From positions 112,158,001 through 112,222,000 of the forward strand of contig OX597822.1 of the NCBI GenBank assembly GCA_951406725.2: a stretch of DNA of 64,000 nucleotides, given 5' to 3'. The stretch's first letter is position 1, and the number at the start of each line of letters is the position of its first letter. The position numbers and the translations under genes were made by a program. The notes under the pieces are model-generated. The model was not told the origin of the DNA. It was given only the letters and a program-made list of their open reading frames with translations, and made no database searches. The stretch is from Octopus vulgaris. Its lineage: Eukaryota. Shown piece by piece: positions 20,911-30,015 of this stretch.

Positions 20911-23900
20911 ATACAAGGATGGGACAATAAGTGTAAACCAGTGTCAACAGTGGCGCAGGAGTGGCTGTGTGGTAAGTAGCTTGCTTACCAACCACATGGT
21001 TCCGGGTTCAGTCCCACTGCGTGGCACCTTGGGCAAGTGTCTTCTGCTATAGCCCCGGGCCGACCAATGCCTTGTGAGTAGATTTGGTAGATGGAAACTG
21101 AAAAAAGCCTGTCGTATATATGTATATATATGTATATATATGTGTGTGTGTGTGTGTGTTTGTCCCCCTAGCATTGCTTGACAACCGATGCTGGTGTGTT
21201 TACGTCCCTGTCACTTAGCGGTTCGGCAAAAGAGACCGATAGAATACGTACTGGGCTTACAAAGAATAAGTCCCGGGGTCGATTTGCTTGACTAAAGGCG
21301 GTGCTCCAGCATGGCCGCAGTCAAATGACTGAAACAAATAAAAGAGTAAAAGAGAAAGAGAGAGTGGTTTCAGAAATTCTGAGCCAGAAACTACAGCTTA
21401 GGAAACGAGCCATATCCTGGAAGATCTGTAGAGCTCGGTGAGGATGTCCTGCAACCCATGGTGGAACAAAATCCTGTCGTATCTATTGAGGAACTAGCAA
21501 AGAAACTTGGATTTAGCCATTCAACCTTTCATTGATACCTGCATGCTATTGGAAAAATCATCAAATTGGCTCAATGGGTTCCAAGTCTAATCGTGGGCAG
21601 AGAGCAAATGTGTGCTCTTCTTTGCTGTCAAGTCTCATCAATGAACTTATTTTGCCCCACCCACCATATTCACTGGACATTGCTCCATCTGATTAACATT
21701 TATTCTGCAGTCTTCAAAATTATTTGGACAGAAAAAGTATGAATTCCGTAGATGAGGTCAGAACAGTACTTGAAGAGTATTTTTCATCACAGACAAGTGA
21801 ATTTTGGAAGAGGGGCCTTGCAAGTCTACCAGATAGATGGAAGAGCATTGTAGAAAAGGAAGGAGAGTATATTTTAGATTATAAAAAGAACTTTGTTTAT
21901 CTTAATTTTGAAAAATAAAATGAATATAAAAAACCCACATTATTTATGGGATGACCCAATATATGAGCACATATAATCTTTACATTTATATATAAATTCA
22001 TTTTTAGGTCATGTTTACAAAAAGGATGAACTTAGGAAGTTTTTGAATCGCCCAAAGTCTGTTTTACCCTCTACAAAGATAAAAGTTGCTGGTATGGAGA
22101 AAGATAATGTTAATATGCTAATAGCTTATATGACCCATGCATGTAATGAGAATTAGTACAAAATGTTTGGTTTAAATTAACTTTTGAGGACTTTAAGGAT
22201 GGTAAGTATCATATGATTTCATATTTGAGTAATTCTGAGGATCGGAAGAAAAAATAATTTTTCCATGGTATATTATAAGGTGGTATCAAAACATAAGGCA
22301 GCGAGCTGGCAGAAATGCTAGCACGCCAGGCGAAATGCTGAGCAGTATTTCGTCTGCCGTTACGTTCTGAGTTCAAATTCCGCCGAGGTCGACTTTGCCT
22401 TTCATCCTTTCGGGGTCGATAAATTAAGGACCAGTTACGCACTGGGGTCGATGTAATCGACTTAATCCGTTTGTCTGTCCTTGTTTGTCCTCTCTGTGTT
22501 TAGCCCCTTGTGGGCAGTTAAGAAAACGGTATCAAAACGTTCCTATCAAAACTAGTTATGTTTAATCAAACAAATGAGCTATTTATGTAAGTTTTAACAT
22601 CATTTCCTTTTAAATAGACATCTTGTGCTGCAGTACACCAGTCCCAGTATTCTTGCCACTTTTGGAATGGGGTCTGGAAGTCGTTTTCCACAAGTGGGTT
22701 GAGGACCTTCTGCAATTCACTTGGATCTTGACAACAGCGACCTTTGAGCTGCATTGTCATTTTTGAGAAGAGACGGAAGTCCACAGGTGCTAAATCTGGT
22801 GAATAGGGTGAGTGTGGAAGTGAAACCCTGTTGTTTTGGGTGAAAACTCATGAGTGAGGAGAACTCAGTGATAGGGTCAATTGTTGACATGAAGAATCCA
22901 ATTATTTGCATCCCACAGATCCAGTCGCTTTTGCCGAATGTTCTCCCTCAGATGCTTGGAACCATTGCAGTAGAACTCAGGATCGATGGTCTGGCCTTGG
23001 ACGAATTCTTGATGCACAATACCACATTTCTGGGGTGACGCTTGTTGCATGTCTTCCAGATCGCTCATCATCTTCCCAGGATGTTCTTCTACTTTTGAAT
23101 TTACTTGTACTTGTGGTGACATTCACCCTGGGCGGGTTGAATCGGCTTCTTTTTTGGAAGAAGTTTCGTGGGAATATGTGGATTTCACAAGCGGTCCCCA
23201 ACAATCCCGCATGTAGAGACATCCTGTTTGCTGCAGATTGTCCACAGATGCAGGGACAGAACGACCGAGGAGCCACCGGTTGCCAAAACAGACACTCTAA
23301 GGATTTCACCAGAGCCCCGTCTGCCGGGTTGTGGCCCTAATACTACTCGGTGTCAGACCAATCCACCTTGGGTGGCCCTACCAGGAACTGAAGTTCCCAA
23401 CGACATAGCTCTGACACTACCCATTGCCAGCGTCCCCACCACGGTGAGGAGGGGATGGATTTTGGGGAGGCAAAGTGTCTTTTGAAGTACCCATGCCACT
23501 CTAAACATTGTGTACAACCCATTGCCTTGTTGCCATAAGCTTGCTGAAGCATGCTCAATGTCTCCGTAGCACACTTCCCAAGTTTAACACAAACTTTCAC
23601 ATTGGCGCTTAGTTCCAGTCTTTGGCAAAATTGCAAACTACAGCCTACACATGATCCCAAAAAGGCAAATTTCACAGCTTGCGGAGTAAACACAGCAATG
23701 TCACATGACACACTGCCTCATGAAGGTCACTACTAGCTCTCACTGCACATGCAACTGTGTGCTGCCATCTGTTGGTGAACAACAAAACTTGTCTGGAAAC
23801 ATTATTTACATTTGACGGATATTTGTCCTCATCTTGTTTGTTAATACGTTTCGGCTGATATACCCTCCAGCCTTCATCATGTGTCTTGCAGAAATTTCAA

Positions 23901-29827: not shown

Positions 29828-30015
29828 TACATGTATATATTCATATCATTTTAATTATTTTAGGTCGCATTCTCAATCAAGATGAAATCAGGAAGTTTTT
29901 GTACAATCCAAAGCAGTATTACCCAGGTACGAGGCTGGTATTTGCTGGTATTAAAAAAAAATCTGAACTTGAAGGCTTAATAGCATATATAATCCAATCA
30001 TGCAAGCAGTATTAA
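5003..30015 (+). CDS. Spliced gene for a secreted cytochrome c-like protein lacking heme ligands. Coding exons 5003-5051, 13579-13633, 15133-15263, then 22008-22156 (127-aa isoform) or 29864-30015 (128-aa isoform)
   Basis: All junctions are GT-AG with matching phases (1,2,1). Translation: [128 protein letters not shown]. The C-terminal half aligns without gaps to cytochrome c residues 56-104. Confidence 0.8.
5078..6220 (-). repeat. Tandem array of ~2.9 copies of a 394-bp CR1/L2-type LINE 3' end with a (TTA)n tail
   Basis: Near-identical ORFs at 5264 and 5658 (offset 394). Same family as 39207-39815 and 33440-34075. Confidence 0.9.
6410..6635. mobile_element. piggyBac-like MITE (related copies at 41298-41525 and 46225-46451)
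   Basis: TTAA-ccctttag ... ctaaaggg-TTAA termini. Confidence 0.75.
6700..8097 (+). mobile_element. Degenerate CRE-like non-LTR retrotransposon fragment (RT plus restriction-like endonuclease)
   Basis: Motifs [30 protein letters not shown] and [15 protein letters not shown], with several stops and frameshifts. Confidence 0.75.
8098..12025 (+). mobile_element. CR1/L2-group LINE: 5'-truncated ORF1 with CCCH fingers and near-complete ORF2 (APE plus RT) with two frameshifts
   Basis: ORF2 pieces 8869-10365, 10616-11182 and 11157-11936. EN motifs ETH, LYRPP, GDFN, SDH; RT motifs [33 protein letters not shown]. Confidence 0.93.
13579..13633 (+). CDS. Cyt c-like gene coding exon 2: [18 protein letters not shown](S)
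   Basis: cttcag acceptor and |gtaag donor. Phase 1 in and phase 2 out links exons 1 and 3 in frame. Confidence 0.7.
13697..14088 (-). mobile_element. Non-autonomous Helitron
   Basis: Minus strand starts TC-tctatatataaag and ends with hairpin cccgagcaatgccagg followed by CTAG. Confidence 0.7.
14612..15010 (+). mobile_element. Non-autonomous Helitron
   Basis: 5' TCtttatatataaaag; 3' hairpin cccgagcaacgccggg followed by CTAG|t. Confidence 0.75.
15133..15263 (+). CDS. Cyt c-like gene coding exon 3: N-terminal half of the cytochrome c-like domain, no CXXCH
   Basis: ttttag acceptor and G|gtaatt donor. [12 protein letters not shown] resembles DVEKGKKIFVQK and GPYL resembles GPNL. Confidence 0.78.
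17096..18013 (-). mobile_element. Tc1/mariner-superfamily relic inside TA microsatellites
   Basis: Termini cagggtgtg / cacaccctg flanked by [17 protein letters not shown] motif on the minus strand. Confidence 0.7.
18245..19485. repeat. Locally repeated ~110-150-bp blocks (18245, 18990, 19370), microsatellite-flanked, possibly Penelope pseudo-LTR-like; similar arrangement at 26690-27570
   Basis: Recurring aaacatccagacag..gggtcattcggagttttctttcctcag block. Confidence 0.55.
20312..21959 (+). mobile_element. Mariner relic with intact TIRs and nested insertions
   Basis: TA-flanked TIRs ttgggtcatcccataaataatg / cattatttatgggatgacccaa; [11 protein letters not shown] and [24 protein letters not shown]. 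Confidence 0.88.
22008..22156 (+). CDS. Cyt c-like gene alternative C-terminal exon 4a (exon probably continues as UTR to a donor at 22201)
   Basis: tttttag acceptor. Open frame [49 protein letters not shown], homologous to cyt c 56-104 and to exon 4b. G|gtaagt donor at 22201/22202. Confidence 0.72.
22277..23802 (-). mobile_element. Second mariner relic, interrupted by a SINE (22293-22527) and an RTE-like tail fragment (~23125-23470)
   Basis: [48 protein letters not shown]. The SINE is flanked by the TSD ggtatcaaaac. Confidence 0.85.
24600..26460 (-). mobile_element. Degenerate Penelope-like element (RT plus GIY-YIG)
   Basis: [71 protein letters not shown]. Confidence 0.9.
27790..28310 (-). 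mobile_element. RTE-clade LINE fragment (other RTE 3' fragments at 23935-24230 +, 36597-36915 -, 63500-64000 -)
   Basis: [23 protein letters not shown] and [10 protein letters not shown]; elsewhere [16 protein letters not shown] and QFAGHCCR. Confidence 0.75.
29864..30015 (+). CDS. Cyt c-like gene C-terminal exon 4b
   Basis: ttttag acceptor. [50 protein letters not shown] versus the cyt c motif NPKKYIPGTKMIFAGIKKK...DLIAYL. Confidence 0.88.

Follow-up and report, generated by a model that had tools for sequence, protein, structure and literature searches.

A cytochrome c paralog of Octopus that has lost the CxxCH motif and carries two alternative C-terminal exons is likely a fast-evolving secreted protein

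The stretch analysed here (the window) comprises 64,000 nucleotides (nt) of the Octopus vulgaris genome (GenBank assembly GCA_951406725.2, contig OX597822.1, positions 112,158,001 to 112,222,000, forward strand). It holds a gene that descends from class I cytochrome c but is not a member of that class, and which, judged from its sequence, likely encodes a fast-evolving secreted protein in two forms. These differ in their C-terminal halves, encoded by exons 4a and 4b, both of which are intact in three Octopus species; the CxxCH motif and His18 have been lost, and the domain changes rapidly beside a nearly fixed signal region. We lean towards the view that the product is a secreted, basic, heme-free derivative of cytochrome c, made with either of two C-terminal halves, that would bind anionic extracellular surfaces, a function which we infer. 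The exon model, obtained by an exhaustive test of GT/AG boundaries around five candidate exons, is as follows (window coordinates; a slash marks a splice boundary here and below):

4997..5051, plus strand: exon 1; ATG at 5003, hydrophobic signal-peptide-like start
13579..13633, plus strand: exon 2; the signal ends here (Ala23 invariant), followed by a stretch that aligns with the N-terminal helix of cytochrome c and contains the invariant IFKRA
15133..15263, plus strand: exon 3; in place of the heme-binding region plus residues up to Gly56; invariant Cys60; common to both isoforms
22008..22156, plus strand: coding part of exon 4a, corresponding to cytochrome c residues 56-104; gives the minor isoform and has one codon fewer than 4b; based on orthologs P0005 and P0008 and on a contig over 22024-22179 in one of four sequencing runs
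22199..22207, plus strand: consensus 5' splice site ATG/GTAAGT, 45 nt past the 4a stop; not in the 4b copy
29864..30015, plus strand: coding part of exon 4b, corresponding to cytochrome c residues 56-105; gives the isoform that predominates in the runs examined
30016..30297, plus strand: 3' untranslated region (UTR) of 4b; ATTAAA at 30281, contig ends at 30204, 30216, 30258 and 30297

Exon 1 is single copy in the genome, and because an acceptor stands before it, a further, untranslated exon probably lies upstream. Exons 1-3 joined to 4b yield a protein of 128 amino acids, identical to O. vulgaris CAI9728440.1 (source name "cytochrome c-like"); joined in frame to 4a they yield 127 amino acids, with four differences from isoform X2 of O. 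sinensis. A NAGNAG shift at exon 3 would yield a form shorter by one residue.

PDB matches, profile alignment, synteny and a shared intron all point to descent from cytochrome c. The canonical gene lies on the same strand approximately 57 kb upstream of the paralog ATG (G000:C9:112103211-112105537) and has the same phase-1 intron at Gly56, from which it follows that the paralog is its tandem duplicate. This parent is the only CxxCH cytochrome c found in the genome, a search with its first exon having matched itself alone. No further paralogs were found in the O. vulgaris genome, no donor for the signal exon across the genome or near the parent, and no relic of exon 3 between 4a and 4b. A profile of the family aligned colinearly with 30 canonical cytochromes c over 99 columns (residues 24-126; probability 98.98, E 6.6e-18), with CxxCH replaced in place, and an apparently new intron would fall at about the second Cys codon of the former heme motif. 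The sequence could also be read in another register, with the heme segment deleted and the exon 3 helix representing the N-terminal helix. This alignment prefers in-place substitution, but the helix at 38-52 predicted by both structure models speaks for the other register. Matches in the PDB to the C-terminal half of cytochrome c were obtained with 4b (E 3.5e-11, the best being mouse testis cytochrome c, 2aiu) and with 4a (E 1e-4), and identity to the parent over this half is 21/49 for 4b and 15/48 for 4a. The Pfam family PF00034 was not matched above cut-off by any of five full-length paralogs or by exon 4a or 4b; the first exon of the parent scores 36.6 bits.

The CxxCH motif, present in the parent, and His18 are missing from all six aligned family proteins. 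Trp59, Tyr67 and Met80 are heme-contact positions of cytochrome c, Met80 being an axial ligand. The first two are changed in 6/6 exon-4 sequences and Met80 in 5/6 (Leu in 4b, Ile in 4a; Met persists in 4b of O. bimaculoides), while Leu68, Pro71, Lys72, Pro76, Tyr97 and Cys102 are retained in all six. One might imagine a secreted scavenger of non-covalent heme, or of a metal such as copper, which has acquired new ligands; Cys60, Asp64, Met70 and Cys125 are invariant, a His stands just before Gly79 in all six sequences, and the Met80 kept by O. bimaculoides 4b would fit. His18 is nevertheless lost and the pocket shows free variation at Trp59, Tyr67, Met80 and Arg91, and we regard a scavenger as very unlikely.

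The first 23 residues are hydrophobic, with an 11-residue Kyte-Doolittle mean of 2.7-3.6 in the family (in O. vulgaris the peak, at residue 4, is 3.56), whereas the parent does not exceed 1.18. They end in an invariant Ala, and the -1/-3 residues together with the hydrophobicity fit a predicted cleavable signal peptide. All six aligned proteins keep Ala23, IFKRA, Cys60 and Cys125; in 7/7 proteins exactly two cysteines follow the KR pair (60 and 124/125 in O. vulgaris), and the isoelectric points are 9.1-10.0. The two cysteines suggest a single predicted disulfide in place of the heme cross-link. The parent has three extra cysteines of its own, at 34, 101 and 102; in 30 other cytochromes c position 34 is almost always Gly. 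A Cys pair already present there may have eased recruitment to secretion.

It had been proposed from the letters alone that splicing exchanges a lysine-rich surface which in cytochrome c contacts partner proteins and cardiolipin. According to an excerpt of PMC7193304, K72, K86 and K87 constitute the cardiolipin A-site. O. vulgaris 4a has Glu86; O. bimaculoides 4a retains both Lys86 and Lys87. The net charge of 4a and 4b is +4 vs +5 in O. vulgaris and +6 vs +6 in O. bimaculoides. With a signal-like start, no heme motif, a lysine swap that is not conserved and a charge that barely changes, the proposal finds no support; cardiolipin and respiratory partners are improbable because the product is likely secreted and heme-less. 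A related idea, that the protein stays inside the cell, anchored to a membrane by its uncleaved start, as a heme-less decoy of cytochrome c for cardiolipin or apoptotic partners with tails that tune the lysine patch, could appeal to Lys72, Lys86 and Lys87, which the two Argonauta proteins and the 4b exons of O. vulgaris and O. bimaculoides all retain, as well as to Glu86 in O. vulgaris 4a. Like the scavenger, it is very unlikely: the start has the look of a cleavable signal, in which residue 23 is small and invariant, the two invariant cysteines would be at home in an oxidising compartment, O. bimaculoides 4a does not share the Glu86 swap, and conserved partners should not allow such fast change.

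Exons 4a and 4b both follow ttttag/GT, have phase 1 and contain no stop before their terminal one, with 49 and 50 residues including the junction Gly, as originally described. The hand-aligned identity of about 40% was reproduced by BLASTP (18/44, 41%; E 8e-13), with 19/49 across the whole exon. At the DNA level the local 4a-4b score is 111, against 70.5 (parent-4b), 58.5 (parent-4a) and approximately 31 for codon shuffles. The likeness continues into the 3' flank (87/111 aligned bases; score 83 vs a maximum of 60 in 300 shuffles), and therefore the duplicated unit was the exon plus UTR; the first 150 nt of the 4b 3' UTR are homologous to the 4a 3' flank. The two exons are thus homologous and alike in phase, and both have an intact acceptor and an open frame, as expected of duplicated alternative exons.

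That this duplication followed the split from cytochrome c is borne out by trees of the exon-4 peptide (one with 24 rows, one with 18 rows under two models), in which the paralog sequences branch apart from the canonical cytochromes c with support of 99/100, 99/98 and 100/98. The markers cited for it in the original prediction as derived features, DExRKFL, LIAY and a near-terminal Cys, fared less well, as two of the three are ancestral: LIAY is a canonical cytochrome c motif, and the parent already has Cys at 101 and 102. The 4a exons of O. vulgaris and O. bimaculoides group together at 96/95, and hence the 4a/4b duplication predates the divergence of these species, which split tens of millions of years ago.

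Annotated isoforms with intact copies of the two exons exist in O. sinensis (X1 with 4b, X2 with 4a) and O. bimaculoides (X1 of 4b type, X2 of 4a type, and X3 with an unrelated short tail), and the disruption that would have told against the pair was not found in these two relatives; public records of O. vulgaris hold the 4b form alone. A counterpart of the X3 tail occurs in the window at 30648-30710, where 17/21 residues match and the O. vulgaris genome has two stops; it is likely a non-functional splice product. The two proteins of Argonauta hians (P0012, P0180) are identical over residues 1-32, and share 31/38 residues in exon 3 and 28/50 in exon 4, which reflects either recent conversion or an alternative cassette larger than that of Octopus. 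One Argonauta exon 4 joins 4a weakly (80/59, 85/76) and the other is unplaced; long branches meet in this part of the tree. Members from squid, cuttlefish or other non-octopods were absent among the best 150 of 284 and the best 120 of 721 matches, a weak negative given a word-based search and uneven annotation. The remaining listed matches scored far below the paralogs, and those inspected turned out to be ordinary cytochromes c, whole or in fragments.

Between O. vulgaris and O. bimaculoides the identity is 31/32 over residues 1-32, 28/38 in exon 3, 34/49 in 4b and 28/48 in 4a, the first of these regions being better conserved than 4a (Fisher p 7e-5). Between 4a and 4b, second codon positions are conserved in 37/48 cases vs 26/48 and 26/48 for the other two, and the single indel is one whole codon, where the flank has 7 gap openings in approximately 140 nt. 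In a neutral simulation with 38 substitutions, based on a simple model and yielding rough figures, an open frame and the Cys were kept in 15% of runs, and the probability of no frameshift was approximately 0.09. In runs against O. bimaculoides, 48% stayed open, the Cys was kept in 54% of those, and changes as conservative as those observed arose in 11% of runs for 4a and 5% for 4b. The O. bimaculoides X3 exon (17/21 identical), used as a neutral yardstick, did not differ significantly from 4a (p 0.10).

Expression was examined in public sequencing runs. A search with 4b alone listed 24 runs, none on record as RNA, and all runs are consequently biased to 4b; 20 runs from nine studies contain at least half of the 4b sequence words. 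In each of four runs compared over 13400-30400, one contig (depth 15-33) begins to match at the 4b acceptor and has another 315-376 non-colinear bases upstream of it, which supports splicing into 4b; in three of the four, coverage of the exon 3 bin agrees with the depth of the 4b contig. This comparison was flooded by repeats, its joint table could not show splice joints, and 4a was not among the 32 pieces listed. Four other runs compared with 4a alone gave one 156-nt contig at depth 3.05 within 22024-22179, without a junction; the remaining three had no cover on 4a, which proves nothing. In the runs examined, chosen for 4b, the main form is 4b. Splicing of 4a is thus weakly indicated: the database isoform models of O. 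sinensis and O. bimaculoides speak for it, and the lack of a visible junction does not.

The manner in which 4a would be used may be read from its flank. No A[AT]TAAA was found within 450 nt 3' of 4a, and a donor has been gained at 22201; for these reasons 4a may be a candidate 194-nt cassette exon which carries its own stop and borrows the poly(A) site of 4b. The chance of the 7-mer of ATG/GTAAGT in a 50-nt window is 0.6%, or 2-3% for a looser consensus, and the donor suggests that 4a and 4b could be joined in one mRNA. A stop within the zone 50-55 nt from the junction escapes nonsense-mediated decay, and the 4a stop would fall in this zone.

The account that we favour would begin with tandem duplication of the octopus cytochrome c gene; in the copy, the heme-binding motif would have been lost, the predicted signal peptide acquired and the final coding exon doubled. 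Cleavage after Ala23 would leave a chain near cytochrome c length (104-105 amino acids), in which Cys60 would pair with Cys124/125 (cytochrome c positions 36 and 102), replacing the heme cross-link. Skipping of 4a would give the major form, and its inclusion, probably as a stop-carrying cassette joined to 4b, a minor form with a different binding face. The protein would act by binding anionic surfaces outside the cell, not in electron transport. Apocytochrome c binds to lipids and folds on them. As to the target, our guess is a changing extracellular partner, with microbial membranes in first place and gamete or prey surfaces in second; microbial membranes are possible, though we would stop short of calling them probable. 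A bolder version, which we offer as rather doubtful speculation, is that octopods derived from cytochrome c a secreted, heme-free effector, stapled by a disulfide, which uses the lipid affinity of apocytochrome c to attack or recognise anionic surfaces, and whose C-terminal half is swapped under positive selection, by means of a stop cassette escaping nonsense-mediated decay in Octopus and of separate copies in Argonauta.

Several results weigh against the favoured account. In pairwise tests of the N-terminal alignment to the parent, shuffles are exceeded by O. bimaculoides (P 0.001) but by neither O. vulgaris (P 0.52) nor Argonauta (P 0.87). Positions 36 and 102 of cytochrome c are presumably close; no paper confirming this was found. 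The structure models are weak: for the 4b form the mean predicted local distance difference test score (pLDDT) is 51.7 (28-row alignment), with 70-80 in residues 81-120 alone, and for the 4a form it is 47.8 (6-row, family-only alignment). The 4b model, built with cytochromes c in its alignment, matches cytochrome c at Z 5.2 with a root-mean-square deviation of 3.0 over 63 aligned residues, within residues 56-127 only, and a structure search with the 4a model gave no useful match; an Atlas model has a predicted template modelling (TM) score of 0.55 and TM scores of 0.53-0.61 to c-type cytochromes. Neither exon 3-4a nor 4a-4b junctions were seen in the contigs of the runs examined. Finally, nonsynonymous (dN) and synonymous (dS) divergence between 4a and 4b are 0.52 and 0.57 (48 codons), and their ratio of 0.91 (bootstrap 0.38-2.0), not separable from 1, fits relaxed as well as diversifying selection, so that the case for selection on 4a comes to rest on retention of its open reading frame.

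These last figures would also fit a protein that is secreted but has in 4a a relaxed duplicate, rarely spliced and drifting to loss, so that the 4b form alone matters. In the same direction, 20/48 residues of 4a differ from the O. bimaculoides ortholog by changes that are not clearly conservative (P 0.11), one of four runs shows 4a, at depth 3, and the 32 pieces listed for another four do not include it, O. vulgaris records hold 4b only, and O. sinensis has Ser for the conserved Gly84. We consider this unlikely, as the reading frame, stop position, acceptor and Cys102 are retained in three species; the indel is a whole codon, unlike the gaps of the flank; the rough neutral chance is 0.15 x 0.09; second codon positions are the better conserved; two independent RefSeq annotations call the 4a isoform; and the runs were all chosen for holding 4b. 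The original claim that both exons are under selection is therefore kept in attenuated form for 4a: retention of the open reading frame, the frame and the Cys has a probability of approximately 0.01-0.03 under neutrality, and the ratio of 0.91 does not by itself show selection.

The pattern of conservation also invites comparison with proteins secreted in reproduction or by a venom gland (seminal, spermatophore, egg-coat or salivary), perhaps recut at Lys-Arg, with tails that would diversify recognition of a protein receptor. The signal and pro region is fixed, with a conserved KR pair, and the mature part changes fast, a pattern familiar from conopeptides and gamete-recognition proteins; duplication has occurred repeatedly in Octopus and Argonauta, and the fly has a testis-biased cytochrome c paralog (Drosophila cyt-c-d). 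The mouse has another, as the title of PDB entry 2aiu indicates. The occurrence of 4b at modest depth in so many runs and studies is, however, unlike one dominant gland product, although depth is a poor measure, and the KR pair also aligns with lysines of the parent N-terminal helix. A reproductive or venom-gland product appears rather unlikely.

The original prediction placed exon 4a as an intact island between two mariner relics, and relics were indeed found on both sides, each outside the gene product:

20307..21964, plus strand: mariner relic, ending 43 nt before the 4a acceptor
22560..23790 (approximate ends), minus strand: second mariner relic, 3' of 4a

The upstream relic has 37-nt terminal inverted repeats (20307-20343 / 21928-21964). 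The downstream one gave weak Pfam matches below cut-off (Transposase_1, E 0.0014; HTH_48, E 0.05), and clear terminal repeats were not found in it. Intron 1 contains, at 7976-11936, a retrotransposon of long interspersed element (LINE) type with pieces of CCCH zinc finger, endonuclease and reverse transcriptase in several frames, and directly 3' of exon 1 (5080-6240) stand three tandem copies of a unit of approximately 394 nt from a LINE 3' end. Between 4a and 4b, on the minus strand at 24830-26330, the open reading frame text shows decayed reverse transcriptase/GIY-YIG pieces, which we presume to be Penelope-like. Exons of an Rcd1/CNOT9-family gene (Pfam PF04078) face the paralog on the minus strand at 43896-47513.

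No description of the paralog was found in the literature searched; the supplements of octopus proteome and transcriptome papers, outside its scope, may list the gene, and the available passages of PMC7024357 do not contain the paralog accessions. Since the isoforms are already in public automatic annotation, the exon pair is not new as annotation, and the duplication of an exon is in itself nothing unusual. What appears undescribed is the nature of the protein, hidden behind the automatic label "cytochrome c(-like)". Cytochrome c is the textbook slow-evolving protein. If the favoured account is true, this essential electron carrier has been recruited as an extracellular protein, in a lineage-restricted copy with 30-40% residue change between two Octopus species, and offers a natural test of a cytochrome c fold standing without heme.

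Compared with its parent class (PF00034), the paralog is colinear over residues 24-126, shares the intron at Gly56 and is likewise basic; it differs in having no CxxCH or His18, mostly no Met80, a signal-like start, an extra intron in the former heme motif, no PF00034 match, fast evolution and two alternative C-terminal halves. Mouse testis cytochrome c and Drosophila cyt-c-d remain mitochondrial heme proteins. The octopus gene resembles these tissue-specific paralogs (2aiu in the mouse) as a second gene arisen by duplication, whereas it cannot attach heme covalently. As in other isoforms that arose when an exon was duplicated in tandem, one donor is followed by two homologous exons that agree in phase, each with its own stop; here, in contrast, each exon is half of a domain, and a 4a cassette may turn 4b into UTR. 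Conopeptides and defensins are prepro-peptides with a conserved signal and a variable mature part. The likeness to such secreted prepro-peptides lies in the signal, a short acidic stretch, the KR pair, a basic, fast-changing mature part and fixed cysteines, and the octopus protein departs from them in its electron-carrier scaffold, in at most one predicted disulfide and in a single-copy gene diversified by exon duplication.

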